DNA from: Eubacteriales bacterium | GTDB lineage: Bacteria; Bacillota; Clostridia; Oscillospirales; CAG-382 | Reading direction: 5' to 3' | Assembly (NCBI GenBank): GCA_045544855.1 | Contig: JAZPZV010000020.1 | Coordinates: 21,484-85,483 of the forward strand | DNA: 64,000 bases | Shown: positions 4,736 to 50,713 of the stretch, piece by piece | Numbering within the stretch: position 1 is the first letter of the stretch | Layout of the letters: every line of letters starts with the position of its first letter | Notes under the pieces: generated by a model | The model's input: the letters and a program-made list of their open reading frames with translations, nothing else | The model's database searches: none | What the model was told of the DNA's origin: nothing | Made by a program: the position numbers and the translations under genes

Positions 4736-5533
4736 ATGGACGTAAAACTGCAAAAGTACGTTTCCGACTGCGGGCTCATGTCCCGCAGGGCGGCGGAACG
4801 GGAAATTGAAGAAGGGCATTTTGCCATCAACGGGGTAAAGGCCAAGCTGGGGGACCGTGTGGAGCCCGGCAAGGACAAGGTCACTTACCGAGGCGAGGTG
4901 CTGAAGAAGAGCGGCAAAAAGGTGTATCTGCTTCTCAACAAGCCTGCGGGAGTGGTGACTACCATGCAGGATGAGTTGGGCAGAAAGACCGTATCGGAGC
5001 TGATCGACCTGCCGGGCAAACGGGTGTACCCCGTGGGCAGGCTGGATAAGGACAGCGAGGGATTGCTTCTCATGACCGACGACGGGGAGTTTGCCAACCG
5101 CATTTCCCACCCTTCCGGCGGGATCAAAAAGGTATATTACGTGATGGTGGCGGGCAGGATCGAAAACAACCAATTGGATTCTCTCCGTGCCATGCGGGTG
5201 CTGGAGGGCGAGCCCATCAATCCCGTTGAGGTGGAGCTGATGGAGCGGAGCGATAACGCCAGCAAGGTGCGGTTCGTTCTCTCCGAGGGAAAGAACCGTC
5301 AGATCCGCAGGATGTGCGAGGCTGTGGGGCTTTCCGTTATGCAGCTGCGCAGGGTGCAGATGGGAAATCTGCGGTTGGGTACTCTGGAATACGGCGCTTA
5401 TCGCCACTTGACGGACGAAGAACGAAAAGGCTTATTAAAACTCACGAACGAGGGAAAGATACATGGAAGAAATGACCTTCGAGCAGGCTCTGGCAAGGCT
5501 GGAGCAGATCGTAAAAGAACTGGAAGGCGGTAA
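4736..5533 (+). CDS. rluB: Pseudouridine synthase, RsuA/RluB family with S4 domain
   Basis: S4-like N-terminus (KLQKYVSDCGLMSRRAAEREI) and catalytic VGRLDKDSEGLLLMTDDGE. Basic C-terminal tail overlaps xseB. Confidence 0.85.
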   Translation: MDVKLQKYVSDCGLMSRRAAEREIEEGHFAINGVKAKLGDRVEPGKDKVTYRGEVLKKSGKKVYLLLNKPAGVVTTMQDELGRKTVSELIDLPGKRVYPVGRLDKDSEGLLLMTDDGEFANRISHPSGGIKKVYYVMVAGRIENNQLDSLRAMRVLEGEPINPVEVELMERSDNASKVRFVLSEGKNRQIRRMCEAVGLSVMQLRRVQMGNLRLGTLEYGAYRHLTDEERKGLLKLTNEGKIHGRNDLRAGSGKAGADRKRTGRR

Positions 5534-6579: not shown

Positions 6580-7190
6580 ATCTACGCAGGGTGACCTGCC
6601 TGATCATAAACCTGAAAAGATGGCGCAGTATCCTAGTTAACCAAGTACCGTCGAACGTGTGCCTAAAAACGCACGAAACGGCAAATCGATGAAGCTCCTT
6701 GTGCTTGCTTCTTACGCCCAGTCTGGGGTGGGTGCTGGGAGAAATGGGCCGGTGGGCCGCTCGCAATGGCATGCGATACAAGGTCCCAACGGCTTTGGAG
6801 GCTTTTTTCTGTGGGCACGGAATTGACCGTTTCACCTACAGTCTAAAGATTAAACCCATTACGCGGTGCGATGTTTTCGACGCTGTGGATGGTGTAGCCC
6901 GCCTTGAGTGAGTGCAGCGGATGATCTTCCCTCTTTGGGGAATTTCTGAAATTGTAGTTGCAAAAAAGGATTAGGCGGCGCGAGGTTATTGAGGAAATCT
7001 CCTAGGCTGAAAATCACAGGCGCGAAGCGGATTGCAGTGCGGACTCTCTTAGGCAATCAAGCCCCGGATACAGTAATGTACCGGCGTCGGTTTTAATGGG
7101 GAACCGCCTTTCGGTAACGGAAGGTAACCGCATCGGGGAAAACCTGCTTGACCGTATGCCGCAAAGTTTACGCTTCGCGTCGCCATCAAT
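6580..7190 (+). ncRNA. ole: Probable OLE-class large non-coding RNA (boundaries approximate)
   Basis: About 610 nt with no credible ORF between ispA and an oapA-like gene. The order xseB-ispA-gap-oapA-dxs-tlyA-nadK-argR-recN matches the published OLE locus. Local stems are visible. Not verified with a covariance model. Confidence 0.6.
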
Positions 7191-7191
7191 G

Positions 7192-7746
7192 TCGCTTCGC
7201 TCTCACTGCGAAGCACACGGCTTCGCAGTGATTTTCGCCCTGCTTCCGCGCAGGGCGGGCCCCTCACGGGGTTCGCAACAAGTTGCGAATTTTTCTCGCT
7301 CGTTAGCCACGGCGAGAAAAACTGTTATCGGTGTCTTTTCATGCGGAATGAATCCGCATGAGCGACGCAATTATTATCGCTTCGCTCTCACTGCGAAGCG
7401 CACGGCTTCGCAGTGATTTACACGTCCCTTCCGCGGGACGTGAGCCCCTCACGGGGTTCGCAACAAGTTGCGAATTTTTCTCGCTCGTTAGCCACGGCGA
7501 GAAAAACTGTTATCGGTGTCTTTTTGCCCGAAATGAATTCGGGCAAGCGACGCAATTATTATCGCTTCGCTCTCACTGCGAAGCGCACGGCTTCGCAGTG
7601 ATTTTCGCCCTGCTTCCGCGCAGGGCGGGCCCCTTACGGGGTTCGCACTACGTGCGAATTTTTCTCGCTCGTTAACCACGGCGAGAAAAACTGTTATCGG
7701 TGTCTTTTTGCCCGAAATGAATTCGGGCAAGCGACGCAATTATTTA
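7192..7746. repeat. Three tandem 185-bp units, each built of six hairpins
   Basis: Unit starts (TCGCTTCGCTCTCACTGCGAAGC) at 7192, 7377 and 7562. Stems of hairpins B, D and F differ between units by compensated changes. Confidence 0.95.
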
Positions 7747-7769: not shown

Positions 7770-7848
7770 CTTCCCGAAAACGGTAGTTTTCGGCAGGGAA
7801 AGTTTTTTGGAGTTTTTAAGGACCTTTTTTTCAAAAAAGGTTCTTAAG
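7770..7848. repeat. Two-module palindromic element (CCGAAAAC-N4-GTTTTCGG plus AAGGACCTTTTTT/AAAAAAGGTTCTT)
   Basis: Hairpins at 7774-7793 and 7816-7848. The same two modules recur at 16126, 34562/34620 and 49218/49326. Confidence 0.8.
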
Positions 7849-7876
7849 AAAGGGTCTGAAGAAAAGGATTATCAAA

Positions 7877-8449
7877 ATGTCTATATTGAAGAAAAACAAC
7901 GAATCGGGGAAAGAGCCTCCCAGTAAAAAGGATGCGAAAAAAAAGAGCAGGGTAAGATGGGTCGTAACGGCATTTCTTGTGAGCTTTGTCATCTCTGCCG
8001 TGTTTTCGGTAACTATGGGAGAGGTCACGGCGAACGCCAACATTGTCGTTGCCATTTTACTGCTGCTTTTCTTTATTGCGCTGGGTATTTTGTTTGACGT
8101 AGTGGGACTTGCCGTGGCAACGGCGGATGCCTCCCCCTTCCACTCCATGGCGGCAAGAAAGCTCCGTGCGGGGAAAAAGGGTGTTTGGCTGGTGGCCAAC
8201 TCCGACAAGGTGTCCTCGGTGTGTAACGACATCGTGGGTGATATCTGCGGCGTCGTGACGGGTGCGGCGGGTGCCGCCATCGTTGCCAAGCTGTTTGCCG
8301 ACGGGGCGTTTTGGTACTCCCTGGCGGTGACCTCCCTGATCTCCGCCATCACGGTAGGAGGCAAGGCGGCCTGCAAGAACTTTGCCATGAAGCACAGCGA
8401 AAACATCGTCATGCTGGTGGCAAAGGCTATGTGTTTGTTCAGAAAATAA
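7877..8449 (+). CDS. oapA: OapA-like small multi-pass membrane protein (OLE-associated protein candidate)
   Basis: 190 aa with a Lys-rich N-terminus followed by about four hydrophobic helices. Sits between the OLE-like gap and dxs. Named from synteny only. Confidence 0.6.
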   Translation: MSILKKNNESGKEPPSKKDAKKKSRVRWVVTAFLVSFVISAVFSVTMGEVTANANIVVAILLLLFFIALGILFDVVGLAVATADASPFHSMAARKLRAGKKGVWLVANSDKVSSVCNDIVGDICGVVTGAAGAAIVAKLFADGAFWYSLAVTSLISAITVGGKAACKNFAMKHSENIVMLVAKAMCLFRK

Positions 8450-8479: not shown

Positions 8480-10348
8480 ATGCTGGAATCCATCCACTCC
8501 CCCGAAGATCTGAAAAAGATCCCAAGGGACGAGCTTTTAAATTTGACCAACGAAATACGGGAAGAGCTGGTGCGGGTGGTGTCGGAAAACGGCGGCCATC
8601 TTGCCGCCAATCTGGGCGTGGTGGAGCTTACGGTGGCATTACACCGTGTGTTCGACTGCCCGACGGACAGCATCATCTTTGACGTGGGACATCAGGCCTA
8701 CGTCCACAAGCTTTTGACCGGGAGACGGGAGCAGTTTGCCACCCTGCGGAAGCATGGGGGGCTTTCCGGCTTCCCCAAGATCAGCGAATCGGAATACGAC
8801 GCCTTTGGGTGCGGGCACAGCTCCACCTCCATTTCCGCCGCCATCGGTATTGCCGCGGCAAAGCGGCTTTCCGGGGACGAAAGCTACACGGTGGCAGTCA
8901 TCGGAGACGGTGCTTTTACCGGAGGCATGGCCTACGAGGCTTTGAACAACTGCGCGGGAAATAACAAGCTGATCGTCATTCTTAACGACAATACCATGTC
9001 CATCGCCCGCAACGTGGGGGCAATGGATACATACCTCAACCGCTTCCGCAACAGCGGAAAGTATTTCCGTTTGAAGAGCCGTGTGAAGAGCTTTTTCCGT
9101 TGCATTCCCTTGGTGGGAAAAGGACTGGTGAAGCTGGCCACATGGGTGAAGAACCGGCTGAAGCATCTGCTGGTGCGGGAAAATTTCTTTGAACACATGG
9201 GGCTTTCCTATTACGGCCCTCTGGACGGAAACGACGAGGCTTTGCTGGAAACGGTTTTGAACGAGGCTAAGGAGGACGGGCACTGCAGTGTGGTGCATAT
9301 CCTCACCCAGAAGGGCAAGGGCTATTCCTACGCAGAGGCGCGTCCCGACCTGTTCCACGGCATCGGCAGGTTTGATCCCGCCACCGGTGAGCCTTATTCC
9401 TCCGGCGGGGGCAATTTCTCCGCCGCCTTCGGCAACGCCCTTTGCAGGCTTGCCAAGGAGGACAAGCGGATCTGCGCCATTTCCGCCGCCATGCCCGACG
9501 GCACGGGGCTTGCGGATTTTGCGGAGATCTTCCCGGACCGGTTCTTTGACGTAGGCATCGCAGAGGAGCACGCGGTGACCTTTGCCTGCGGTCTGGCGCG
9601 GCAGGGCATGAAGCCCGTATTTGCGGTGTATTCCACCTTCGCACAGAGAGCCTACGACCAGCTGATCCACGACGGGGCGTTGCAGAATCTGCCCATCGTC
9701 ATCGCTTTGGACCGCGCAGGTCTGGTGGGCGAGGACGGTCCCACGCACCACGGTATTTTCGACGTGGCGTTTTTGAATCAGATCCCCGGGTTCACGGTGT
9801 ATTCCCCCGAAACCTACGGGGAATTGGAGGTCTGTCTGAAAAAGGCTGTTGCGCTCCCCTCTCCCGCGGCGGTACGTTATCCCAGGGGGAAGGAAGCCAC
9901 CTGCACGCAGGAAGCCGTTTATGCAGACGATTCCCTGGCGGTGTACGATTACGGCAGTGATCCCGCCGTGGTGTTCTATACCTACGGCCGTTTTTCCGCA
10001 GAGGTGCGGCAGGCGGCCGAGACCCTTGCAGGCAAGGGCATTTCCGCAAGAGTGGTGAGACTGATCCGCGTGAAGCCCTTGGAGGTTTCCCGCTTGGCGG
10101 CCTACGCAGAGGGTGCAAGCCTTGTGTACGTGGCGGAGGAAGGCATTCGGGAAGGCGGCGTTGGGGAGACCTTGGTGTCTGCCTTTGCGGAAGCCGGTCT
10201 TTGCAGAAATACCCGTGTGTTCATCCGTGCCATTGCGGGGCAATTCCCCACCCATGGCACCACCAAGGAGCTGTTTGCCGATCTGGGCATGACCGCAGAG
10301 CAGATGGCCGCAGAGGCGGAAGGGATGGTGGGCAGTTTTGCGCATTGA
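8480..10348 (+). CDS. dxs: 1-deoxy-D-xylulose-5-phosphate synthase
   Basis: 622 aa. TPP motif GDGAFTGGMAYEALN and transketolase-like middle and C-terminal regions. Confidence 0.95.
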   Translation: MLESIHSPEDLKKIPRDELLNLTNEIREELVRVVSENGGHLAANLGVVELTVALHRVFDCPTDSIIFDVGHQAYVHKLLTGRREQFATLRKHGGLSGFPKISESEYDAFGCGHSSTSISAAIGIAAAKRLSGDESYTVAVIGDGAFTGGMAYEALNNCAGNNKLIVILNDNTMSIARNVGAMDTYLNRFRNSGKYFRLKSRVKSFFRCIPLVGKGLVKLATWVKNRLKHLLVRENFFEHMGLSYYGPLDGNDEALLETVLNEAKEDGHCSVVHILTQKGKGYSYAEARPDLFHGIGRFDPATGEPYSSGGGNFSAAFGNALCRLAKEDKRICAISAAMPDGTGLADFAEIFPDRFFDVGIAEEHAVTFACGLARQGMKPVFAVYSTFAQRAYDQLIHDGALQNLPIVIALDRAGLVGEDGPTHHGIFDVAFLNQIPGFTVYSPETYGELEVCLKKAVALPSPAAVRYPRGKEATCTQEAVYADDSLAVYDYGSDPAVVFYTYGRFSAEVRQAAETLAGKGISARVVRLIRVKPLEVSRLAAYAEGASLVYVAEEGIREGGVGETLVSAFAEAGLCRNTRVFIRAIAGQFPTHGTTKELFADLGMTAEQMAAEAEGMVGSFAH

Positions 10349-16030: not shown

Positions 16031-16063
16031 GAACGGGGACGCTTTACGGCGTTCCCGTTTTTG
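16031..16063 (+). terminator. Rho-independent terminator of the recN-vanZ-lipoprotein unit
   Basis: AACGGGGACGC-tttac-GGCGTTCCCGTT followed by a T-run. Confidence 0.7.
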
Positions 16064-16196
16064 CTACAAGGGGGGGCGCAACCTCGCTTTAGCGAGGTAT
16101 AGAATCATTCAAAGAACTTTTAATGCCGAAAACTGACGTTTTCGGAAAATGATCGAACGTATTCACATTGCGGGGTTAACACATTGGAGGTAACTT

Positions 16197-17714: not shown

Positions 17715-20321
17715 GTGAAGAAGACGTTATCTTTGGTTCTTTGCCTTGCTTTGCTTTCGGTGGTGTGTCCCGTCTTTTTCACCGAAGAAGCCGTGGCGTG
17801 CGGACCGTACCCGGGGGAATCGTATTACGAACAAGGGTATGAAGAGTATGAAAACGGCAGATATTCCTGTGCCGTTAAGGGAGACGAGGCGGTTCTGCTG
17901 CATTACAAGGGCGTCTTTGGCCAAACGGAGATCGTTGTGGATGCCAATATCGGTCCCTACAAGCTGGTTGAGATCGCCGACAACGCCTTTGAGGGTTGCG
18001 GCGCCAAGCGGGTGGTGATTCCCGAGGGCGTAGTGGAAATGGGCGATGGGGTATTTGAACAAAGCTCTGTGGAAGAGATCGTTCTCCCGAACAGCTTGCG
18101 GGTCATTCACGGTGCATTCACCAACATGGATCAGATTGAGAAAATCGTGATCCCCGAGGGTGTGGAGGAACTGTACGACACGGTGTTCTCCAACTGCGAG
18201 AAGCTGAAGGAAGTGACCCTGCCTTCCACGCTGAAAAGCGTTGTAAATCTGTTCAGCAATTGTCCTTCCATAGAGACTGTGGTGTTGCCGGAAGGCTTGG
18301 AAGTCATGGACGGCTACGTTTTCTATTTGTGCGACAGCGCAAAATCTCTTATCATTCCTTCCACGGTACGTTCTATGAGCTACGCTCCCGTGGTAGGCTG
18401 CGACAGCTTTGAATCGTTGTCTGTAGCCCCGGGAAATGAAAACGTAAAGCTGGAAAACGGATGCCTCATCACCTCCGAGGGAGTGTTGGTGCAAGGCTTC
18501 TCGGGATGTGTGATCCCCACGGAGGGGTTGGCTGCCATTGGCGGCAGTGCCTTCTACCACGCAGATTGGCTGGAAGAGATCACCATTCCCCACGGCGTGA
18601 CATCCATCGGCGCAGGTGCTTTTATCGGATGTAATAACTTGACCAAGGTAGTTCTGCCCCGGGGGCTTACACAGATAGGAGTATCCGCATTCTCCGGCTG
18701 TAAGGCTTTGAAAGAGGTCGCGCTTCCCGACAGCGTTGAAAGCATTGGAGACACTGCCTTCACCGGCTGTAAGCAGCTGGATCTGAAGATGCCGGCCGGC
18801 TTGAAGTCTGTGGGGGAAAGCGCATTCAGAAACACAGCCATTACCTCCGCCATCTTCCCCGAAACACTGGAATTTCTGGGAGAACAAGCGTTAAGAGATT
18901 GCGAGCAGTTGGAAGTCCTTCATCTTCCCGCAGGGCTGAAGAGCCTGCCTTGGCTGCTCACCTCAGGATGCACAAATGTGAAGGAGCTGGTATTACCTGC
19001 CGGCTTGGAAACCTACGAGCCGGGTTCGTTCAGCTATATGCCCAATCTGCAGAAAGCGGAGCTGGACGAGAGCAATCCCAACTTCTATTTGAACGGCTTC
19101 TGCCTGATGAGTAGAGACGGCACGCTTTTGGCGGCGCTCTCAGGTGGCGATATCCCGAAAGAGACGAAGGTTATCGGCAAGCAAGCCTTCCGGCACTTTG
19201 TTCAACATGAGCCCCTGTTCCTTCCCGAAGGCGTGGAACGCTTGGCATCGCAGGCTTTCGACCAAGCGGACGTACCTGAGATCGTTTTGCCCGCCTCGTT
19301 GAAAATAATTGATGATTATGCGTTTTATTATGCAAATATCGAAAGCCTTTACATTCCCGCCACGGTAGAGGATATGGGATATAATCTGTGTCAGGGCTGC
19401 TTCTACCTACGTCAGGTGGATATGGGATATGAGAAAAAACCCGACGGATGGGAGGACAGAATGACGCTGAGCTTTGGCGGACGAGTTGTCTGGAACGTAA
19501 ACTCCCGCCGCACAGACATCTATAAGGTCAGCGGTGATTTCCGATACGAGATAGTAGATGGCGAAGCTCATATCGTAGAGTATCTGGGCGATGCCACCGA
19601 GTTGGTGATCCCCGAGACCATCGACGGCTACAAGGTAACGGTATTGGGAATGAAAGCATTGGAAGATCAAGCTAAGCTTACTTCCATCACCTTGCCGAAC
19701 ACCATCCATACTCTCGAAAGGAATTCCATTGATGGTTGCGCTTCCTTAAAGGAGCTGATTCTTCCCAACAGCGTAAAGACTCTGAAACACTGTGCCATTT
19801 GGGACTGCGAAAGCTTGGAATACGTATATATCCCCAATGTGACAACGGTGGGATCCCAAGCCATTGACTATTGCACTAACCTGAAAAAGGTGGAGTGTGC
19901 GCCCACAAAACAACCTGCTTCTTGGGACGATCGCTGGCACGGTTACGTTTCCGAGATCGAGATCGTTTGGGGCGTTCCCCATCCCAATGAGGAGGATCCT
20001 GTGGATCCGCCCGTGGAGCCGATTGATCCGCCGGAGGTTTCGGAGGAAGTGAGCGAAGAGGTTTCCGAAGAGGTTTCGGAAGAAGTTTCGGAGGAAGTTT
20101 CCGAGGAAGAATCTGTGGAAGTTTCCGAGGAAGAATCCGAAGCGGTCTCCGAAGAAGAATCTGCGGCAAGCGAGGAGGAACAGACGTCCTCTGCCGAAAG
20201 CATCGCGGAAAGCGAGACGGAAGAGCCTGCAAAGGGCAGCTTCCCCTGGATTCCCGTGGGGATCGCCGTGGTATTGGTTGCCGCTGTGGCGGTGATCTTG
20301 GTTATCAGAAAAAAGAAATAA
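17715..20321 (+). CDS. BspA-type leucine-rich-repeat surface protein 1 with acidic EVSE linker and C-terminal TM anchor
   Basis: Probable GTG start 8 nt after AAAGGAG. Signal peptide, then many IPEGV..IG..AF..C..L..V.LP repeats. Tail is (EVSE)n plus TM plus RKKK. Confidence 0.85.
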   Translation: MKKTLSLVLCLALLSVVCPVFFTEEAVACGPYPGESYYEQGYEEYENGRYSCAVKGDEAVLLHYKGVFGQTEIVVDANIGPYKLVEIADNAFEGCGAKRVVIPEGVVEMGDGVFEQSSVEEIVLPNSLRVIHGAFTNMDQIEKIVIPEGVEELYDTVFSNCEKLKEVTLPSTLKSVVNLFSNCPSIETVVLPEGLEVMDGYVFYLCDSAKSLIIPSTVRSMSYAPVVGCDSFESLSVAPGNENVKLENGCLITSEGVLVQGFSGCVIPTEGLAAIGGSAFYHADWLEEITIPHGVTSIGAGAFIGCNNLTKVVLPRGLTQIGVSAFSGCKALKEVALPDSVESIGDTAFTGCKQLDLKMPAGLKSVGESAFRNTAITSAIFPETLEFLGEQALRDCEQLEVLHLPAGLKSLPWLLTSGCTNVKELVLPAGLETYEPGSFSYMPNLQKAELDESNPNFYLNGFCLMSRDGTLLAALSGGDIPKETKVIGKQAFRHFVQHEPLFLPEGVERLASQAFDQADVPEIVLPASLKIIDDYAFYYANIESLYIPATVEDMGYNLCQGCFYLRQVDMGYEKKPDGWEDRMTLSFGGRVVWNVNSRRTDIYKVSGDFRYEIVDGEAHIVEYLGDATELVIPETIDGYKVTVLGMKALEDQAKLTSITLPNTIHTLERNSIDGCASLKELILPNSVKTLKHCAIWDCESLEYVYIPNVTTVGSQAIDYCTNLKKVECAPTKQPASWDDRWHGYVSEIEIVWGVPHPNEEDPVDPPVEPIDPPEVSEEVSEEVSEEVSEEVSEEVSEEESVEVSEEESEAVSEEESAASEEEQTSSAESIAESETEEPAKGSFPWIPVGIAVVLVAAVAVILVIRKKK

Positions 20322-20355: not shown

Positions 20356-22971
20356 GTGAAGAAGACGTTATGTTTGGTTCTTTGCCTTGCTTTGCTTTCG
20401 GTGGTGTGTCCCGTCTTTTTCACCGAAGAAGCCGTGGCGTGCGAGGGAGACGATTGGGGTGACAGATACCGCGAAGACGGATACGCAATAGAAGAGTTTG
20501 GAGACTACCGCCTTGCCATCAAGGACGGCGAGGCTACCCTGCTGGAATATTACGGATGGGAAAAAGACATCGTTATAGAGGCGGAAGTGGGCGGCTATCC
20601 CATCGTGGAAATTGATTCCATGGCTTTTGCCTACACCGTCCCGGAGACCCTTGTGATCCCGGAGGGTGTGAAAGAGATCGGCGGGTTCTATTTCTACAAC
20701 GGATTTGATTTAAGAGAGATCACCCTGCCCTCCACTCTGCGGGTCATCCACGGCGGGTTTGACGGCTGTGATGCCGTAGAGAAGATGGTGATCCCCGAGG
20801 GCGTGGAGGAAATGCACGGAACGGCTTTCTCTTATTGCGAAAAGCTGAAGGAAGTGGTTCTGCCCTCTACCCTGAAAAAAGTGGGCGGCTTGTTCATTGA
20901 ATGTCCCTACGTGGAAACCGTACTTCTCCCCGAGGGGCTGGAAGAAATCACAGGGATCATCTTCTACGACTGCGCCAACGCAAAATCGGTGGAGATCCCC
21001 TCCACGGTGAAGCACATGACCCACGCCCCTGTGGTGCGCTGTGAAAAGTTTGAAGAGCTGACTTTTGCCCCCGGGAATGAGTACCTACGGATGGAAAACA
21101 ACTGTCTGATCACCGCCGACGGCGTACTGTTGCAAGGCTACGAGGGCAGTTCCGTCCCCGCCGAGGGGATCACCGCCATCGGTGCTTACGCTTTCTGCTA
21201 CGCCGACTGGCTGACGGAAGCCATTTTGGGGGATGAGGTCACCTCCGTGGGAACCTGGGCGTTTTTGGGTTGTGAGAACCTGACCAAGGTCAGCCTTCCG
21301 GAAGGGATCACTGCAATTGAATCCCAGACCTTTCAAAGCTGCACGTCTCTGGCGGAATTCCGGATGCCTTCCACCGTTACAAAGATCGGTTCCTTTGCTT
21401 TCCACAAGTGCAAGGAGCTGTCCCACGTAGACTTCCCTCCCGCTTTGGAGGAGCTGGGAAGAAGTGCGTTCAACAATTCCGGCATCACCTCCGCCATCCT
21501 GCCGGATACCATCACAAGCTTGGGTACGGAAGTTTTTTACGGCTGTAAGAATCTGGAAACTCTGCGGCTCCCCGCCGGTCTGCCCGATCTGGGGGAAAGC
21601 TTGCTTTCCGGTTGCTCCAATTTGAAGGAGCTGGCGCTTCCCGAAGGAATTACCTCCATCGATCGCTTTGCTTTAAGCAATTTGGAGAAGCTGGAGAAGC
21701 TGCATTTGCCCTCCACCCTGGTAAACGTGGAAGGCGACTCCTTCGGAGCCATTCCCAATCTGAAGGAGCTGACGGTTGCGGAAGGCAATCCCGTTTTGTA
21801 TACAGAAGGTCCCTTCCTGATGAACAAAGACGGTACCTTGGTGCGTGCCTTTGCTTATGGGGAGCTGCCCGAGGGGATCACCACCATTGGCGGATACGCC
21901 TTCTACAACTGCTCCGGCTGGGACGTGTTTACCGTTCCCGAGGGTGTGGTCACCATTGAGGAGCACGCTTTCTACAGCGCCGCCGTGAACAGGATCGACC
22001 TACCCCGAAGCTTGAAAGAAATCGGGCAGTGCGCCTTCTCCCGTGCGGAGATCAAAAGCATCTTCCTGCCTGCTACCATCCAATCGCTGGACTATGACGT
22101 ATTTGAGCTTTGTTCTTGTTTGGCCACGATCTACGCAGAGCCTGCGGAACGCCCCTCCTTCTGGGCCAGTTGGGACGGTGACTTCAAGGGAACCGTGGTA
22201 TGGGGAGCAACGGGAATTCCCGATGACAACTTCCTGCGTAGCGGCGACTACCTCTACGATATCGTAGGAGACGGCGTCAGCATCCGCGCCTATCTGGGCG
22301 AAGCAACGGAGATCACGATTCCCCCGGAGCTGGGCGGATTGCCTGTGATCCAATTAGGAAACGGCGCATTCACGGAACAGCAGGCTTTGGTTTCCATTAA
22401 ACTGCCGGACACCTTGAAGCGCGTGGGCGACCAAGCATTCCAATACTGCTCCTCCCTTAAGGAGCTGGTCTTCCCGGACGGCGTGGAATACATCGGCAGA
22501 GACGCATTGTTCAGCTGTAACAGCCTGGAATATGTTTATTTGCCCGATGCGGACGTGGTCGGCACCGATGCAGTCTCCTATTGCCGTGAATTGAAGGTGG
22601 TGGAATGTGCGCCCAAGGAACAGCCTGCCGGATGGTCTTTGCGGTGGTACGCTGCGCTCCCCGCCGCCCAAATCGTTTGGGGCGTGAACGAGGAAGAACC
22701 CGTTGAGCCTCCCGTTGAGCCGGTTGACCCGCCGGAGGTAAGCGAGGAAGTGAGTGAAGAGGTCTCGGAGGAAGTTTCCGAAGAGGTTTCCGAGGAAGTG
22801 TCCGAAGAAGAAAGCGCCGAAGCAAGCGTGGAGGAACAGGTATCCTCCGCCTCCGGCGAGACGGTGAGTGAAACGGAAGAGTCCGACGGAGAGTTCCCCA
22901 AGATATGGATCGTTGTCATTGCGATTTTGGTTGCCATGGCAGTGGCCATCGTGATTTTGAGAAAGAAGTAA
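20356..22971 (+). CDS. BspA-type leucine-rich-repeat surface protein 2 (paralog)
   Basis: Same GTG start context and signal peptide as gene 1 and collinear LRR body. The track ORFs are 874 codons in both genes. Confidence 0.85.
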   Translation: MKKTLCLVLCLALLSVVCPVFFTEEAVACEGDDWGDRYREDGYAIEEFGDYRLAIKDGEATLLEYYGWEKDIVIEAEVGGYPIVEIDSMAFAYTVPETLVIPEGVKEIGGFYFYNGFDLREITLPSTLRVIHGGFDGCDAVEKMVIPEGVEEMHGTAFSYCEKLKEVVLPSTLKKVGGLFIECPYVETVLLPEGLEEITGIIFYDCANAKSVEIPSTVKHMTHAPVVRCEKFEELTFAPGNEYLRMENNCLITADGVLLQGYEGSSVPAEGITAIGAYAFCYADWLTEAILGDEVTSVGTWAFLGCENLTKVSLPEGITAIESQTFQSCTSLAEFRMPSTVTKIGSFAFHKCKELSHVDFPPALEELGRSAFNNSGITSAILPDTITSLGTEVFYGCKNLETLRLPAGLPDLGESLLSGCSNLKELALPEGITSIDRFALSNLEKLEKLHLPSTLVNVEGDSFGAIPNLKELTVAEGNPVLYTEGPFLMNKDGTLVRAFAYGELPEGITTIGGYAFYNCSGWDVFTVPEGVVTIEEHAFYSAAVNRIDLPRSLKEIGQCAFSRAEIKSIFLPATIQSLDYDVFELCSCLATIYAEPAERPSFWASWDGDFKGTVVWGATGIPDDNFLRSGDYLYDIVGDGVSIRAYLGEATEITIPPELGGLPVIQLGNGAFTEQQALVSIKLPDTLKRVGDQAFQYCSSLKELVFPDGVEYIGRDALFSCNSLEYVYLPDADVVGTDAVSYCRELKVVECAPKEQPAGWSLRWYAALPAAQIVWGVNEEEPVEPPVEPVDPPEVSEEVSEEVSEEVSEEVSEEVSEEESAEASVEEQVSSASGETVSETEESDGEFPKIWIVVIAILVAMAVAIVILRKK

Positions 22972-23813: not shown

Positions 23814-24317
23814 ATGAAAAAACTGTTTTTACTGCTTTTGGCGGTGTGCCTGCTGGCGGGGTGTGAACAGCCTCCCTCCCCCGCGGTTTCCGAGGGGGGA
23901 GAATCCTCCGTGGAGGAAAGTGAGATCTCGGAGGAATCCTCCGAGGAAGAAAGCCTGCCGGAAAAGCAGGTTCTGGTTTTGCTTTACGAGTATTACATCA
24001 CCGCAAACGTGAAGTCCGACGGGATCTTCTACGAATACACCTACTGCTTTGACGAGGAAGGCAGGGTATTCAACGCCGTAGCGAAGCTGATCTACCCATC
24101 ACGGGAAAAGGCGGAGACGGAGTATTACCAGCTGATCAAGGCGGAATACCCCAACGTGGAATTGAAGGGCAATGAACTGTACTTCTCCTTCCCCAAAAAG
24201 AAGTGCCCCTACTTCGGCATCACCTACACAGCACTCCCCTACCTGCTGGAGGAATCGGTGTATATCATCACCGACTTCAACCTTCCGGAGGAGGAAGAGG
24301 TGTCCGAGGAAGATTGA
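23814..24317 (+). CDS. Lipoprotein, unknown function
   Basis: MKKLFLLLLAVCLLAGC lipobox followed by an acidic Ser/Glu linker. Confidence 0.7.
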   Translation: MKKLFLLLLAVCLLAGCEQPPSPAVSEGGESSVEESEISEESSEEESLPEKQVLVLLYEYYITANVKSDGIFYEYTYCFDEEGRVFNAVAKLIYPSREKAETEYYQLIKAEYPNVELKGNELYFSFPKKKCPYFGITYTALPYLLEESVYIITDFNLPEEEEVSEED

Positions 24318-24320
24318 TTT

Positions 24321-24390
24321 CTTTCAAAAATCAAAGAAAATGAAAGAAAATCAAAGAAAATCGAAAAAAATTCAAAAAAGTTTGAAAAAC
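24321..24390 (+). promoter_or_regulatory. Phased A-tract array (UP-element-like) upstream of the rplM promoter
   Basis: Seven consecutive 10-mers of the form NAAAGAAAAT, so exactly 10-bp period. Confidence 0.6.
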
Positions 24391-24393
24391 CTC

Positions 24394-24421
24394 TTGACAA
24401 ATCCGTTTTCTGTGCTATAAT
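24394..24421 (+). promoter_or_regulatory. Sigma-A-type promoter of rplM-rpsI
   Basis: TTGACA (24394-24399), 16-nt spacer ending in TGC, TATAAT (24416-24421). Confidence 0.7.
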
Positions 24422-24465
24422 TGCAAAGGCTTAAGAAAATATGGATTTATGAAAGGACTATGCAT

Positions 24466-24894
24466 ATGTCTACTACGATGCTCAAAAAAGAGACCGTTGA
24501 GCGCAAGTGGTACGTAATCGACGCCGCAGGTAAGACCCTGGGTAAGGTTGCTGTCGCTGCTGCAACGATCCTGAACGGTAAGCACCGCCCCGAATACACT
24601 CCTCACGTGGATTGCGGCGAATGCGTGATCGTGATCAACGCCGGTAAGGTCGTTCTCACCGGTAAGAAGCTGGATCAGAAGATCCACTACCACCACACCG
24701 GTTATATCGGTGGCATGAAGGCTGTCAAGTATCGCACTCTGATGGCTACCAAGCCCGAAATGGCAGTTGAACTGGCCGTTAAGGGTATGCTTCCCAAGAA
24801 CACCATCGGTGACAACAGCTTTGGCCGTCTGAAGGTCTATGCCGGCGCTGAACATCAGCAGGCTGCCCAGATGCCCATCCCTGTTGAACTCTAA
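24466..24894 (+). CDS. rplM: 50S ribosomal protein L13
   Basis: [29 protein letters not shown]....[12 protein letters not shown]. Confidence 0.95.
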
Positions 24895-24909
24895 GAAATA
24901 AGGAGGTAA

Positions 24910-25320
24910 ATGAACATGACTTACACACCCGCAGTTCCTTATTTTTACGGCACCGGCAGAAGAAAGACTTCCGTAGCTCGCGTTCGCGTTATGGTTGGTA
25001 CCGGTTCTATCACCGTTAACGGCAAGGCCGCAAAGGAATATTTCGGTCTTGACACTCTGATGCTCATCGTCAACCAGCCCTTCACCACCACCGGTACCGA
25101 AGGCAAGTTCGACGTGATCTGCACCGTTAAGGGCGGCGGCCTCTCCGGTCAGGCAGGCGCTGTTCGCCACGGTATTGCAAGAGCTCTTCTCCAGGCTGAC
25201 GATGCTTATCGTCCCGTCCTCAAGAAGGCAGGCCTCTTGACCCGTGACCCTCGTATGAAGGAAAGAAAGAAGTACGGCTTGAAGGCTGCTCGTCGCGCTT
25301 CTCAGTTCTCCAAGAGATAA
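24910..25320 (+). CDS. rpsI: 30S ribosomal protein S9
   Basis: [17 protein letters not shown] ... C-terminal [25 protein letters not shown]. Confidence 0.95.
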
Positions 25321-25352
25321 TTACAGCCTTACGGCAATTATTTCGATATACA

Positions 25353-25384
25353 AAAAGCTCTGCATCTGCGGAGCTTTTTTGTTT
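25353..25384 (+). terminator. Rho-independent terminator of rplM-rpsI
   Basis: AAAGCTCTGCA/TGCGGAGCTTT arms followed by TTTTTGTTTT. Confidence 0.8.
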
Positions 25385-25386
25385 TC

Positions 25387-25494
25387 AAGCACCTCGGTCA
25401 TTGCAACACCGAAATCACCTCTAATATCTACGTTCACATTTTCAAAGAATACAAAGCCAAGATGGCTGAATCTATCGAGCACGATTTGCTTTGA
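25387..25494 (+). pseudogene. 3'-terminal remnant of a tyrosine recombinase/integrase gene
   Basis: Translates to KHLGHCNTEITSNIYVHIFKEYKAKMAESIEHDLL*. This is the LGH....T...Y.H box II with the catalytic Tyr. No upstream coding part remains; it abuts the rpsI terminator. Confidence 0.7.
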
Positions 25495-25536
25495 TCAAAA
25501 AGGGCGGTTCAATTTGTATAGAATTGAGCCGTCCTA

Positions 25537-25565
25537 TTTACTTTTCACCGTTTTTATGGTATAAT
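25537..25565 (+). promoter_or_regulatory. Promoter module copy P1 (TTTACT-17-TATAAT)
   Basis: CCTATTTACTTTT...TGGTATAAT. Same layout as P2-P4. Confidence 0.6.
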
Positions 25566-25609
25566 ACAACTAATAGATAAACTTGAATTTGGAAAAGGAG
25601 TATGATTGT

Positions 25610-25957
25610 ATGAAATCGATGAAAACTATAGCTATTCTACTAACACCGCTTTTATTATTCGCTATCTTGTTTATTCCTTATAATTTAGCTAATCAACACT
25701 TTATTGTCGATTGGCTGGGCTGTGGCTGCCCTGTAATAGATGAAGCGGGCAATATGGTTGAAAACAACTTTAACGCTAATGATTTCACGGCATTATTTTG
25801 GTTAGTTATCTCTGTTTGTGTGGTTGCAATTTCGGTGTTTTTATCAAAAAGAATACCGAAAGAAAAGATGTGGTTCAGAGTTCTGTATATAGTAGGTATG
25901 CTTTTGATATCACTCGTGATAACTTATCAATTCTGCCAAATGATGATGTGGAAGTGA
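25610..25957 (+). CDS. Small membrane protein, low GC
   Basis: ATG 9 nt after AAAGGAG. Three hydrophobic helices. AT-rich codon usage unlike the flanking core genes. Confidence 0.6.
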   Translation: MKSMKTIAILLTPLLLFAILFIPYNLANQHFIVDWLGCGCPVIDEAGNMVENNFNANDFTALFWLVISVCVVAISVFLSKRIPKEKMWFRVLYIVGMLLISLVITYQFCQMMMWK

Positions 25958-26114
25958 CAAATTCCAATTTGTCGAGCTTAATAGGCGTTGAATGTTGGTG
26001 TGATTTTGGTGCAAATTTGGTGCAACACTTTATGCGACGATACTCACGATATTCACGATATCAAACGGTGTTCTTAAAACTCCAAGAGATAAGCGGTTTT
26101 TATTGGAAAATTCA

Positions 26115-26142
26115 GCACTCACGTTTGTGGGTGCTGTTTTTT
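26115..26142 (+). terminator. Terminator hairpin, copy 1 of an identical pair
   Basis: GCACTCAC-gttt-GTGGGTGC followed by TGTTTTTT. The same 28 nt recur at 27568. Confidence 0.7.
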
Positions 26143-26214
26143 CGTTTCGACGTGTCGATAAGTGGCCGGCACGCATGGGATATGGTGTAAAGTCGTTTTG
26201 CCCTTCAACGCAAA

Positions 26215-26399
26215 CGGGCTGCCGAAGGACGTCAGCCCCTACGAAGCCGAACAGAGGGAGGGTAAAAAACAGACCTGGATTTCCCGCATGGAGGACGGTA
26301 AAAAACACGTTTTATGCCTACCTCGTTGCGCGAAAATGCGGTTTCATTTTAGCCCATACATCTTGCGTTTTCGTAGGGGTTGACGTCCACGGCAACCCG
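26215..26399. mobile_element. MITE-like element with imperfect terminal inverted repeats of about 30 bp
   Basis: CGGGCTGCCGAAGGACGTCAGCCCCTACGAAGCCG at 26215 versus the reverse complement of CGTTTTCGTAGGGGTTGACGTCCACGGCAACCCG ending at 26399. No ORF inside. Confidence 0.4.
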
Positions 26400-26478
26400 A
26401 AGCCGAAGATAACGAGTTTTGGCGACGCAAGGATATTTTTTCGTGACAAAAAGGGCATGGAATTGTAAACAATCCCTC

Positions 26479-26507
26479 TTTACTTTTAGCAAAATGTGTG
26501 GTATGAT
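26479..26507 (+). promoter_or_regulatory. Promoter module copy P2 (TTTACT-17-TATGAT)
   Basis: CCTCTTTACTTTT...TGTGGTATGAT, 49 nt upstream of the ATG at 26556. Confidence 0.6.
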
Positions 26508-26555
26508 GATACAAATTCGTATCGACCAACTTGAGAGCAAACGAGGGTATAAGAA

Positions 26556-27161
26556 ATGAAAATAGATGGCTGCGTAACAGACGGAAGCGGTGCGCCCATA
26601 GCAAATGCGCTGGTTGAAATAAAAGGAGAATCCTTCGATACGCTTTTCAGCACGGAAAGCAACGAAGACGGCTATTACATGCTGGACATCCCGGCAGGTC
26701 GATACCCTTTTTTGACAGCAGTGAAGGACTACGGAATCAACTATTTGGAATACTGGTGCCAGAATATTTCCCTGCAAGCTGACATGTCGTTGAACGTGAG
26801 CTTCGACAAATTGGAGATCTACGGATTGCACGTATTTTCTGTCAAAGGCGCCGGTAATAGCCTGATGGCATATTTCAGACCCATGAGTTTGCCTAAATTC
26901 CGGCAAGGGTTGCAAGATATTGCGCCGGAGAACCTTGTGATCAAAGCAAGCATCGACGGGCAGGAAAGACCCGTTATCCATACGAATCCGGTTAAGGAGC
27001 TTACGGAAGGTCTTGAATTGTCCGCATACCTGATCCAGGTTGAAACAAGTGGGCGCGATATTCCTTGGCACAAGTTTGATCTGCAAATCACAGACGCCGA
27101 TCGTCATTACGGTGCGGCAACAATTTTTAATCAAGACGTTCAGCAGTGTGGGAATGTGTAA
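26556..27161 (+). CDS. Carboxypeptidase-regulatory-like (CarboxypepD_reg) domain protein
   Basis: N-terminus KIDGCVTDGSGAPIANALVEIKGESFDTLFSTESNEDGYYMLDIPAGRY is typical of the beta-sandwich fold. Low-GC gene. Confidence 0.6.
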   Translation: MKIDGCVTDGSGAPIANALVEIKGESFDTLFSTESNEDGYYMLDIPAGRYPFLTAVKDYGINYLEYWCQNISLQADMSLNVSFDKLEIYGLHVFSVKGAGNSLMAYFRPMSLPKFRQGLQDIAPENLVIKASIDGQERPVIHTNPVKELTEGLELSAYLIQVETSGRDIPWHKFDLQITDADRHYGAATIFNQDVQQCGNV

Positions 27162-27198
27162 TCGTTAGAGGAATTTGAAGTTGACGGAGGTATCGCAG

Positions 27199-27546: not shown

Positions 27547-27567
27547 CAAAGTCCAATTTGACAAGCG

Positions 27568-27597
27568 GCACTCACGTTTGTGGGTGCTGTTTTTTTA
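27568..27597 (+). terminator. Terminator hairpin, copy 2 of an identical pair
   Basis: GCACTCAC-gttt-GTGGGTGC followed by TGTTTTTTT. Confidence 0.7.
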
Positions 27598-34535: not shown

Positions 34536-34561
34536 GAATACGGGGCAAGAAGGTACGGGGC

Positions 34562-34639
34562 GTTAAGAACCTTTCTTTGAAAAGAAAGGTTCTTAACAAT
34601 CTCCAAAGAAACCTCATTGCCGAAAACTGTCGTTTTCGG
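34562..34639. repeat. Two-module palindromic element (17-bp-arm AAGAACCTTTCTTT palindrome plus CCGAAAAC-N4-GTTTTCGG)
   Basis: Arms 34562-34578/34581-34597 are perfect. The second hairpin is at 34620-34639. Confidence 0.85.
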
Positions 34640-34933
34640 GGGAAATGAAAAAGCCGGTGCAATCTCACTTTCATTGCCTCGGCTTTTATCAATAGGAACC
34701 TCATCCACCGTTTGCGGGGGATGAAGAAGGTTCTTTTCCTGCTTTATACTCCCCGCAACGGTCCTCCTTCCCCAGAGGGGAAGGCAAAAACTCCCTTTCG
34801 GGAGTTGGAAATTGTCGTATGCCCCTGCGGGGCGGAACTAAGATCGTCTATTCTCTCGCCATGATTTATGGCTGTGCACGATTGAACGCTTTTTGCGCAC
34901 GCCGTAGGCGGATGAGGTTCCTTCGCTTTTGAA

Positions 34934-45736: not shown

Positions 45737-45834
45737 TGTTTATACGGGAACCTGTTTTGAAGTTTTTCAAAAAGAGTTTCGGTGAGCGACGCAATTTATT
45801 GTAACTTCATAAAATGAGTTTTGATGAGAGAGCC

Positions 45835-45868
45835 CGAGAGAGAACCTTTTTCCAAAAGGTTCTCTCTC
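45835..45868. repeat. Palindromic AACCTTTT/AAAAGGTT-type hairpin
   Basis: GAGAGAACCTTTT-tcc-AAAAGGTTCTCTC. Preceded at 45785-45800 by GAGCGACGCAATTTAT, which also closes each 185-bp unit at 7361, 7546 and 7730. Confidence 0.8.
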
Positions 45869-45900
45869 GGAACAACCAAAATAAAAAGGAGACAGACACT

Positions 45901-49205: not shown

Positions 49206-49217
49206 AGAAGGAACGGA

Positions 49218-49400
49218 CGAGAGAAACCTTTTTTGTAAAAAAGGTTTCTCTCGTGCTCTTTTCCAAAAAACTTTTCATGCAAAAGAACCTTCCGCAAAAG
49301 CAGAAGGTTCTTTGTGTTTTTTCTCCCCAAAACGACAGTTTTGGGCAATGGGTTTTCTTTTTTGTTAAACTTTTTTCTTTTTCCGAAAAGAAAAAAGTTT
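49218..49400. repeat. Four consecutive palindromic hairpins in a convergent intergenic region
   Basis: Hairpins at 49218-49253, 49282-49312, 49326-49345 and 49367-49400, with near-perfect arms of 8-16 nt. Confidence 0.85.
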
Positions 49401-49411
49401 AGTTGCTCCCC

Positions 49412-50713
49412 TTACAGCACCAACCACAGCCCCAGCAGAGCGGCGGCCATGGAGCAGAGGGACACGGGTGCGCAGTAGCGGATGAACTTGCCGAAGGACA
49501 TCTTCACCCCGTAGCGGGAAAGGAGGCTCATCCACAGGATCCCCGCAAGAGCGCCGATAGGGGTGAGGTAAGCACCCAAGTTAGATCCCGCCACCGCGGC
49601 GAACAACGCCCCTGCCGCCTCTGAAGAGGGCACGGCCGCCACCACGGCGGAATAGAACACGCTCATGGGAATGTTGTTCACCAGATTGGCGGCAAGGAAG
49701 GAGGAAGCACCGAAGGTGAGGATGCCGTTCCCTTGGGTCAACAGAGAGGCCAGGGCTTCCGTCGCCCCCGCCTTGCGGAGCGCCAGCACCACCACGAACA
49801 TGGAAAGCACGAAGGGAATGATCTCCCAGGGCGCACGGCGGAAGGAATCGGTGATCATTTTCAAGCCCTTCCCTCGGGCAAGGAGGTACACCGCCATGGA
49901 AACGTACAGACTGACAAAGCACACCAAAGTGATCAGCCACATGGGCATGGCAAGGAAGTTGGAAAACACCAGCAGGAGGATACATACCGCCAAGTGCAAA
50001 ATGGCGGTGATCACCGCAGGCAGATCCTCCAAGCGGGGATGATCGTCGTTTGCTTCCATGGGCTTTTGCAGACTTTTTCGGAACATCAGCCACAGGACGA
50101 TAAAAGAAACCGTTCCCGCAAGCAACGTGGGCAGCCACATCACCTGCAGGTAGGAAAGGAAATCCACTTCCCCGGAGGTACACAGGCAGATGTTGGTGGG
50201 ATTACCGATGAGCAATCCCATGCTCCAGGTATTTGCCGCCACAAACTCAGATACCAGAAATGGCAGAGGGTCGATCTTGGCGCCTTTTGAGAAGAAGCAC
50301 AGGAAGGGAGTGAAGGTGAGGATCACCACGTCGTTGGAGGTGAACACGGTGAGCACGGAGACCATGAGATACAGGCTGACGAACAGCTTTTTCTGACTGC
50401 TCCCCGCGTGGTGCAGAACCTTGGAGGCCAGCCAACGGAAGAAGCCCGCCTGATCCAGAAATACGGAAAGCAAGGTCATGGAAAGGAACAGCACCAAAAG
50501 CTGCAGGGGATTGATCCCGCCGCTTTGGGTGAGGCCTTCCAGGATCTCTTCCCCGCTGATCCTGCCCAGGAGCCACAAGAGCACCCCGCCGATAAGGGGG
50601 GCGAACCAATAAGTACTGATAAAATGCCGACGGACAGATACCGACGGGAAGAAGAACACCAGCCCCAGCATGGTGATGCAGGCCGCGGCGGCGATGAGAA
50701 CGGTAAGGAGCAT
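49412..50713 (-). CDS. ArsB/NhaD-superfamily permease
   Basis: 433 aa, 10-12 helices, GINPLQLLVLFLSMTLLSVFLDQAGFF motif region. Confidence 0.75.
   Translation of the reverse strand: MLLTVLIAAAACITMLGLVFFFPSVSVRRHFISTYWFAPLIGGVLLWLLGRISGEEILEGLTQSGGINPLQLLVLFLSMTLLSVFLDQAGFFRWLASKVLHHAGSSQKKLFVSLYLMVSVLTVFTSNDVVILTFTPFLCFFSKGAKIDPLPFLVSEFVAANTWSMGLLIGNPTNICLCTSGEVDFLSYLQVMWLPTLLAGTVSFIVLWLMFRKSLQKPMEANDDHPRLEDLPAVITAILHLAVCILLLVFSNFLAMPMWLITLVCFVSLYVSMAVYLLARGKGLKMITDSFRRAPWEIIPFVLSMFVVVLALRKAGATEALASLLTQGNGILTFGASSFLAANLVNNIPMSVFYSAVVAAVPSSEAAGALFAAVAGSNLGAYLTPIGALAGILWMSLLSRYGVKMSFGKFIRYCAPVSLCSMAAALLGLWLVL

Follow-up and report, generated by a model that had tools for sequence, protein, structure and literature searches.

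A stretch of 64,000 nucleotides from an Eubacteriales bacterium (GenBank assembly GCA_045544855.1, contig JAZPZV010000020.1, positions 21,484 to 85,483; the whole of this stretch is here called the window) has, in its intergenic regions, four copies of an element in which a short hairpin, A, is joined by a pyrimidine linker to a longer hairpin, B. Module A is CCGAAAAC-GNNA-GTTTTCGG and module B a long, AT-rich and perfect hairpin. That the A-linker-B element belongs to a dispersed, structured and clade-specific repeat family with turnover of its modules is firmly established. It is probably best understood as an undescribed, clade-specific family of ~90-nt non-coding interspersed mosaic repeats that acts through its hairpins, in uncultured gut and rumen Clostridia represented by Oscillospiraceae-like metagenome-assembled genomes (MAGs).

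Copy 1 (7770..7858, + strand; 78.8 bits with R1, a covariance model built from 99 copies of the element; also detected as an inverted repeat, with a fold z of -3.2) consists of hairpin A at 7774-7793, the pyrimidine linker at 7794-7812 and hairpin B at 7813-7850, and is flanked on one side by the OLE RNA and 185-nt repeats and on the other by the start codon (7877) of what is probably oapA. The best-scoring copy in the window, 34552..34643 on the - strand (R1 92.1 bits, inverted repeat, fold z = -5.7), begins 27 nt past the stop codon of a gene for an Ig-like surface protein (33213-34535) and has its B hairpin at 34562-34597, its linker at 34598-34619 and its A hairpin at 34620-34639. The copy at 49322..49413 (+; R1 77.7 bits, inverted repeat) has a compensated variant of A (CCC..GGG) at 49326-49345, followed by the linker TTTTCTTTTTT and a B hairpin of the TAAACTTTTTTCTTTT type at 49366-49401; it is situated between convergent metallophosphoesterase and ArsB/CitMHS genes and touches the ArsB stop codon. 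The last, 16067..16149 (-; R1 53.6 bits), is a partial or variant element with an A hairpin (16126-16145) and linker but with another hairpin, D (ACCTCGC-TTTA-GCGAGGT, 16081-16098), replacing B, and it follows a canonical terminator (~16033-16062) and precedes a PHP-domain gene (16197) by 50 nt.

An earlier note on this DNA had recognized the hairpin CC(G/C)AAAAC-N4-GTTTT(C/G)GG at 7774, 16126, 34620 and 49326, and all four sites are exact; there is no further site in the window even when one mismatch is allowed, and shuffled sequences give an expectation of 0. The five palindromes to which it drew attention are also genuine, being inverted repeats that rank with the longest of the window; their arms measure 14-18 nt and are separated by only 2-4 nt: 49217-49254 (18-nt arms), 45834-45870 (17), 34562-34597 (17), 7813-7850 (18, 89%) and 49282-49313 (14). 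The consensus offered for them, AACCTTTT..AAAAGGTT, is exact at 45843 and 49225, but the other three are variants that deviate from it (GGACCTTTTTT, GAACCTTTCTTT, GAACCTTCCGC). The two modules had been regarded as independent words used in differing order. The differing order is real (7770 versus 34562), but its cause is inversion of a whole A-linker-B unit, and the words are not independent. Their adjacency also stands, except that A at 49326 had been paired with the palindromes at 49218 and 49282; its true B, TAAACTTTTTTCTTTT/AAAAGAAAAAAGTTTA at 49366-49401, had been missed.

Three of these palindromes are better read as gene-proximal hairpins of similar design than as units of the family. 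That at 49217..49254 (+; inverted repeat, flagged in a terminator scan), a stand-alone B-like hairpin, is 12 nt past the metallophosphoesterase stop codon, and the orthologous site in two loci of related MAGs, L114 and L065 (sampled loci are given L numbers), has a different hairpin (GGGGAACCCC...). Another stand-alone B-like hairpin, CCGAGAGAGAACCTTTT/AAAAGGTTCTCTCTCGG at 45834..45870 (no strand assigned; inverted repeat, R1 only 16.7 bits), has neither A nor linker; it lies in the ychF-GHL10 spacer, before GHL10, and L065 has an orthologous hairpin. The palindrome at 49282-49313 is part of a feature, 49282..49321 (+), in which the hairpin AAAGAACCTTCCGC..GCAGAAGGTTCTTT, an inverted repeat, is followed by GTGTTTTTT. 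It was flagged as a hairpin plus T-run, lies directly 5′ of the A hairpin of the neighboring unit, before which its hairpin ends by 12 nt, and is plausibly an ordinary terminator.

An oriented element with two unlike hairpins

Alignment of 116 copies together with their flanks gives a single frame, with conservation ending at the edges of the element, and A and B are the halves of one oriented element of ~90 nt. The 5′ half of its consensus is a pyrimidine flank, CCGAAAAC-GNNA-GTTTTCGG, CA(A/T)T, three or four variable nucleotides and (A/G)GTTTCTTTGGAGATTC; the 3′ half continues with TTAAGAACCTTTCTTT-loop-AAAGAAAGGTTCTTAAG and CGTNCCCC. Hairpin A has 8 bp and a GNNA loop closed by a C-G pair, and the 8 nt 5′ of it are pyrimidines, with G at 4% or less and without GTAG. 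The linker after CA(A/T)T is a pyrimidine tract of the TTTCTTTGG type. Hairpin B has 17-24 AT-rich bp, is perfect, is usually based on CTTAAG and is followed by a C-rich tail; in many copies it is lengthened by pairing of GGAGATT with the CGTNCC tail.

Hairpin pairing is strongly selected, as covariation in both stems shows. Positions 3 and 18 of A, which the search pattern left unconstrained, are paired in 115 of 116 copies (GC 94, AT 16, CG 5, GT 1). The nine apical pairs of B that are predicted by RNAalifold all vary, both partners of the pair having changed in eight (AU 47/GC 33/CG 11 in one of them). In doublets the A slot also holds stems as different as CCCGATAC/GTATCGGG, CCCGACAC/GTGTCGGG and CCCCAAAC/GTTTGGGG, all of which retain the C-GNNA-G loop and the 3′ CA. 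The predicted fold is two hairpins on either strand (z = -2.3 to -5.7), and since G-U and A-C mismatches are balanced (15 versus 10), mismatches do not single out one RNA strand.

A further regularity links the linker to B. The tract T(a)C T(b) of the linker mirrors the apical segment of the B 5′ arm, T(b)C T(a); to the purine arm, A(a)G A(b), it is complementary in parallel orientation. A mirror match is better than a direct one in 45 elements, the reverse holds in 4, and 42 are ties; the match of a linker to its own B scores 7.41 as against 6.40 ± 0.08 with shuffled partners. The three tracts covary in length, with at least seven (a,b)/(b,a) variant classes: (2,3)/(3,2), (4,3)/(3,4), (3,4)/(4,3), (4,5)/(5,4), (3,5)/(5,3), (4,6)/(6,4) and (4,7)/(7,3).

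The modularity of the element is real: D (CCTCGC..GCGAGG) can be inserted between linker and B, as in L001, L064, L137, L138 and L145, B is gained or lost, A occurs in variants, and one and the same spacer has differing combinations in five close relatives. Some units are solitary, and others are paired head-to-head. That arrangement holds for each of the 14 tight doublets, in which the A hairpins are 0-75 nt apart; no tail-to-tail doublet is seen, and in four doublets a single A is shared. Just 3′ of the A hairpin (in B-to-A orientation), after a GAGAAT/GAAAAT box, a motif TTTTC(T/C)TCACAAT(G/A)(T/C)(G/A)CAGGGTTCTTA recurs in L104, L116, L117, L070 and L101; it could be a further module or a promoter region.

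Distribution, placement and turnover

A pattern scan with TGCCNAAAACTNNCGTTTTNGG covered one genome per species in 185,579 species genomes, or 596 Gb. The pattern has 18 specified bases, from which ~17 chance matches are expected by arithmetic over the whole collection, and at least 101 blocks were found. Among the matches listed, 94 blocks are from nine related MAGs labelled Clostridia, Eubacteriales or Oscillospiraceae, most of them from the gut of goat, sheep, yak, buffalo or roe deer; the remaining seven are single blocks in scattered, unrelated taxa and look like chance. In 675 kb of ~8-kb blocks from draft MAGs of the clade, R1 finds 127 units, ~33 beyond the one per block that selection of the blocks guaranteed. 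The density is about one unit per 16-20 kb, and extrapolation from this gives roughly 100-200 copies per genome of 2-3 Mb. R1 had no match in 440 kb of control loci with an A-like 20-mer by chance (best score 34.6 bits) or in 185 kb of viral contigs carrying A plus the start of a linker. In the material searched the family is confined to this clade. The earlier note had suggested looking for the modules genome-wide and in related genomes, and across the genomes of this clade they are enriched, not restricted to the few sites in the window.

Its suggestion that they might favor gene 3′ ends and spaces between convergent genes is likewise borne out by spacer occupancy. With crude open reading frame (ORF) calls, by which 22 of 118 elements are inside called and probably spurious ORFs, units are present in 36% of the convergent spacers sampled, in 15% of the codirectional and in 9% of the divergent ones (convergent versus divergent, odds ratio 5.7, p = 4e-5). 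Units often touch stop codons. In codirectional spacers there is no bias of orientation, the two orientations numbering 20 and 18. Some units are inside tight operons, as in the OLE-oapA spacer and in L046, where there are ~140 nt between a stop codon and the next ribosome-binding site; the corresponding spacer of L106 is 11 nt. These two loci are the one filled/empty pair, and a clear target duplication is not evident.

Close relatives permit the fate of individual copies to be followed. Over shared genes the window is 91% identical to JAZNPH01 and 87-90% to SVTH01; exact matches to the window YchF protein were found in only two metagenome contigs, L001 and L002, and an exact-protein look-up with the oapA-like ORF gave no match. 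In 43 orthologous pairs, defined by BLAST matches in both flanks and drawn from different MAGs, element identity is bimodal. In one group the elements are 93-100% identical with flanks at 78-96%. In the other they are 57-84% identical, which is the background level for unrelated copies (~72%), and here another member of the family has replaced the unit. The copy at 49322..49413 illustrates both. It is 94-99% identical in L140, L096 and L065, with flanks at 80-91% (against L065, 98% for the element and 82-85% for the flanks), while L001, the closest relative, its flanks at 92-97%, differs at the same site in A, linker and B and has an additional D hairpin inserted, with an identity of 62%.

The ychF-GHL10 spacer has five contents in five relatives: A-linker-B in L001; a B-like hairpin plus A-linker-B in L118; B-linker-A-linker-B, with one A shared, in L002; a full 185-nt unit plus a stand-alone hairpin in L065; and, in the window, the last ~19 nt of a 185-nt unit plus a hairpin. 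In L122, B is absent where its orthologue in L134 is present. Orthologous copies are conserved beyond the neighboring genes, and now and then, even among near-identical strains, a copy or module has been exchanged, inserted or lost.

Other repeat families

A full-length OLE RNA (6604-7202, +; Rfam RF01071, 361.7 bits) is followed by 185-nt repeats, copy 1, a gene for a CNNM/DUF21-type membrane protein (7877-8449), which is probably oapA, and dxs (8480-10348), and the OLE-oapA spacer, filled with repeats, is unusually long at ~675 nt. The 185-nt unit is present directly 3′ of the OLE RNA as three tandem copies (7192..7746, +; Tandem Repeats Finder), each terminating in (G/A)AGCGACGCAATT. The earlier note had seen a motif that closes each copy and reappears beside one of the palindromes; its 13-mer, GAGCGACGCAATT, matches exactly at 7360 and 45784 and with one mismatch at 7545 and 7729, but it belongs to this separate repeat family. 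The occurrence near 45784 is the 3′-end remnant of a 185-nt unit (GGTGAGCGACGCAATTTATT, 45781..45800, +), the orthologous spacer of L065 having the unit at full length. Single dispersed copies are found in L127 (5041-5231, beside the 6S RNA gene), L065 (3774-3951, after ychF) and L079 (~4736-4882). The unit has six hairpins, conserved loops (TTCCGC, AATGAAT) and single-stranded stretches (ATCGGTGTCTTTT, GAGCGACGCAATT), with compensatory changes in 21 of 56 predicted pairs in six copies. It has no Rfam match, and a scan of JGI metagenomes gave only two loci, both of them lacking OLE RNA and A-linker-B elements. The 185-nt unit is a candidate for a structured RNA or mobile element in its own right, as a separate family.

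The small CYCCC-N3-4-GGGRG hairpins of the earlier note are present in excess (8 with a relaxed pattern, compared to ~0.9 in shuffles), but they are heterogeneous and are parts of other repeat families. Those at 34789 and 34821 are within a multi-hairpin repeat of ~150 nt (34691-34837) that has copies of 76-80% identity in L089, L129, L106, L071 and L067. Others, CTCCC..GGGAG at 27646-27676, are flanked by two inverted copies of a repetitive extragenic palindrome (REP) of the GTAG type, GTAGGGGCGATTCACGAATCGCCC, in which GTAG precedes the palindrome GGGCGATTC-AC-GAATCGCCC. Three identical copies of this REP are in the window, where 0 are expected (27599-27622, -; 27739-27762, +; 30289-30312, +), and it is also found in the related MAG loci L058, L132, L105 and L091. 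GTAG-type REPs bound a region of low G+C content, 24000-30000 (~45% versus 52-58% elsewhere), with a leucine-rich repeat protein, a protein with a carboxypeptidase-regulatory-like or phage-tail-like domain and ORFs without Pfam matches; this block may be an acquired island. Repeats of a different nature, in-frame and of 12, 24 or 36 nt, encode low-complexity segments rich in E, S, G and V in two 874-aa ORFs and one further ORF (20034-20163, 22743-22810, 59724-59788) and are unrelated to the A-linker-B element.

Proposed function and relation to known families

A search of Rfam 15 gave no family above threshold for the element, OLE (RF01071) alone passing in the window; the best sub-threshold match, on B, was to a plastid 3′UTR AU-rich hairpin (28.7 versus 51.5 bits). 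Searchable literature had no match to the element sequences and none pairing Oscillospiraceae with repetitive extragenic palindromes. By analogy the family can be read as a new one within the bacterial interspersed mosaic hairpin repeats (REP/BIME/BOX-like), and the view of the earlier note, that this is a mosaic system in BIME or BOX style of no described family, is supported by its modularity and dispersal.

The resemblance to the REPs and BIMEs (bacterial interspersed mosaic elements) of Enterobacteria and Pseudomonas is one of architecture. Both are short, multi-copy extragenic hairpins, concentrated past the 3′ ends of genes and between convergent genes and found as single units or head-to-head pairs; both form mosaics with linker motifs, and neither is a canonical terminator. 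The inverted palindromic pairs of BIMEs with a conserved linker, in several combinations, are an analogue with unrelated sequences; a further trait of BIMEs is binding by IHF, DNA gyrase or DNA polymerase I. In contrast to REPs, A-linker-B has no 5′ GT(A/G)G, its stems are AT-rich rather than a GC-rich palindrome, and no REP-associated tyrosine transposase (RAYT) was found in the blocks searched. Its two hairpins are unlike, the short one having a GNNA loop and the long one an AT-rich stem, and are joined by a pyrimidine linker; its hosts are a clade of Gram-positive anaerobes, and there is no sequence similarity. The BOX elements of Streptococcus pneumoniae, boxA-boxB-boxC, are modular and structured, with ~100 copies, variable modules and no known dedicated transposase. 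Like them, A-linker-B is a modular intergenic Firmicute repeat of about 100 copies with strong predicted secondary structure; the description of BOX sets it apart by its other modules and sequences, its length (~100-300 nt versus ~90 nt) and a different Firmicutes order. With the miniature inverted-repeat transposable elements (MITEs) of Firmicutes, such as RUP in pneumococcus and bcr1 in the Bacillus cereus group, the element shares small size, dispersal, lack of coding and insertion polymorphism. Single A-linker-B units, however, have no terminal inverted repeats, the A-side and B-side ends being unrelated, and neither a recognizable target-site duplication nor a related insertion sequence (IS).

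If the favored explanation is right, the elements would act via their hairpins, as REPs and BIMEs do, and serve as orientation-independent punctuation at gene ends. In transcripts they might block 3′-exonucleases, provide double-stranded processing sites of the RNase III type, or both; alternatively they may be structural sites in DNA. They would not act as canonical intrinsic terminators, and new arrangements could arise by recombination or conversion between copies or by a trans-acting enzyme.

Several points weigh against this explanation. No transposase, RAYT or paralogous ORF was found in ~800 kb of draft-MAG blocks, although this is weak evidence because MAGs lose multi-copy IS elements. 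A tblastn search of these blocks with an approximate IS200 TnpA sequence as query gave nothing, clustering of paralogues within MAGs (at 60% identity or more, and again at E <= 1e-8) gave only ordinary families of surface proteins and regulators, and Pfam had no RAYT or transposase among the ORFs beside the GTAG-type REPs of the window. There are no clear terminal inverted repeats or target-site duplications. Transcription would seldom reach units that follow a canonical terminator, and this makes a role solely at the RNA level less convincing. The element also has an inherent direction, set by its GNNA loop and linker, for which hairpins working in either orientation offer no explanation, and the mirror covariation of linker and B is likewise unaccounted for by this model. 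The copy number per genome, too, is an extrapolation from 8-kb blocks rather than a count in full genomes.

The strongest rival, though an unlikely one, is that the element is purely selfish, a non-autonomous MITE- or REP-like sequence with no host function that is mobilized in trans, for instance by an HUH/Y1 enzyme (RAYT or IS200/IS605-type) recognizing hairpin A on one DNA strand. Polymorphism for presence, absence and replacement between genomes with 92-97% identical flanks is what such an element would produce, the GNNA loop, the 3′ CA and the G-poor 5′ pyrimidine flank are strand-specific features, and head-to-head doublets are known from REPINs and BIMEs. The coexistence of a classical GTAG-type REP means that a REP/RAYT lifestyle may exist in these genomes. 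Yet A-linker-B itself has neither the GTAG signature nor terminal inverted repeats nor a clear target duplication, and the ~800 kb searched had no Y1 transposase or recurrent neighboring ORF. The near-equality of the two orientations is at odds with single-strand transposition, which usually leaves a replication-strand bias, and the greater conservation of orthologous copies than of adjacent coding sequence argues for constraint in place. Two related origins were considered and rejected: an IS-like composite, as the genes within more widely spaced inverted pairs are ordinary (a shikimate-kinase-like gene, dnaA), and a phage, as viral contigs with A-like or A-plus-linker strings have no full element.

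To our knowledge, no process of replication or recombination yields mirror repeats. The mirror relation of the linker to the apical arm of B is the geometry required by a pyrimidine-motif triple helix, with the linker parallel to the purine arm. Conceivably, though the proposal is a rather doubtful one, the element is built to alternate between its long hairpin form and a triple helix within the molecule, which would be H-DNA-like in DNA or consist of U.A-U and C+.G-C triples in RNA. In most copies the 13-17 nt between the tract and its target are paired in the lower stem of B, and so triplex and full hairpin would be mutually exclusive. A mini-hairpin between linker and B arm (GG..CC plus TTC/GAA) that would ease the triplex sterically was rejected; covariation lends it no support, and the 5′ TTC varies uncompensated. 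A short variant, TTTTCTTT-GGTAC-TTTCTTTT-TCCG-AAAAGAAA, has a stem of 8 nt and loops of 5 and 4 nt (L078, L097, L111, L144).

Intrastrand triplex motifs have been defined as a hairpin with a third block that mirrors one arm, with stems of 6-15 nt and loops of 1-6 nt, and were found to be abundant repeats in bacteria, at loci that are more rearranged among close strains (Holder et al. 2015, PMC4666352). The mirror and the length covariation agree with that definition in A-linker-B elements generally, its loop limit only in the short variant. The TM_ECO/BoxC repeats of that study are likewise intergenic hairpins with a tract mirroring one arm, and the spacers with A-linker-B elements are also rearranged among close relatives. 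TM_ECO, however, has a G/C-rich purine motif with loops of 3-6 nt (PMC4666352), and in most copies of A-linker-B the mirrored tract is A/T-rich. A triplex, if real, could stall polymerases or promote recombination. It would explain why spacers are reshuffled between near-identical strains while the elements in them are conserved, and would make the family a natural case of triplex-forming repeats with evolutionary support.

Returning to the hairpins themselves, their stability, their enrichment after gene 3′ ends and in convergent spacers, and the stand-alone B-like hairpins right after stop codons, that at 49217-49254 passing the terminator scan, would all suit transcription terminators, ordinary or of an unusual lineage-specific type, that are alike by convergence. 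This is very unlikely. Defined as at least 5 T in 8 nt, a T-run comes after B in 19 (top strand) and 0 (bottom strand) of 99 copies and after A in 19 and 12 of 99, respectively; at least 80% of copies have none behind A or behind B, whichever strand is read. The pyrimidine tract is in front of B, opposite to the order in a terminator, and a terminator consensus scan flagged no A or B hairpin of the four units in the window, only the stand-alone hairpin at 49217-49254. Intrinsic terminators too are hairpins downstream of genes, but the stems of the element are AT-rich with T and A tracts within the stem, and its copies share non-stem sequence; the conserved linker, loops and flanks mean that the copies are homologous and not convergent. 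Both orientations are equally frequent. About 20 of 115 units (~17%) begin 5-12 nt past a canonical terminator of GC-hairpin and T-run, as at 49282-49321, and others are within operons, where they separate a stop codon from the ribosome-binding site of the following gene (L046; OLE-oapA). The case that the earlier note named as refuting, in which ordinary terminators explain the modules entirely, does not hold: T-runs follow in 19% of copies or fewer, both orientations occur, and some units are located after terminators or inside operons.

A similarly slight chance attaches to each copy being a small RNA gene or a cis-regulatory RNA that acts in one orientation. Both stems covary, and the C-G-closed GNNA tetraloop is present on one strand only, as might be expected of an RNA. 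But orientation with respect to neighboring genes is random, conservation stops at the ends of the element with no conserved promoter or terminator in the flanks, the G-U and A-C mismatches show no strand preference, and Rfam has no match.

Least credible is that A, a 20-bp near-perfect palindrome that in two of the four window copies is upstream of a gene (7774 before oapA, 16126 before the PHP gene), is the operator of a DNA-binding regulator and its sites a regulon, as a genome has on the order of 100 copies or more, the divergent spacers, which bear promoters, hold the fewest and the convergent spacers the most, half-sites change jointly (G-C to A-T or C-G), whole stems are replaced with the loop kept, the loop is always asymmetric and A is always joined to linker and B. 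LexA, Cheo-box and other operators were considered for A and rejected: its core is AAAAC/GTTTT and not GAAC/GTTC, and copy number and spacer distribution do not fit.

Interspersed hairpin repeats, among them the REP/BIME, BOX, ERIC and Correia elements, affect how stable transcripts are, how operons are punctuated and how plastic genomes are, and work on them has been limited almost entirely to cultured Proteobacteria and a small number of pathogens. The abundant uncultured Clostridia of gut and rumen prove to have an elaborate mosaic repeat system of their own, plus at least three further families in the same spacers, and its behavior is unusually clear, with copies either more conserved than the neighboring genes or swapped wholesale. 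The covariance model and consensus allow the elements to be annotated as such instead of being mistaken for terminators, operators or small RNAs. They are usable as strain-typing markers, and they flag spacers where comparisons between MAGs show rearrangement.

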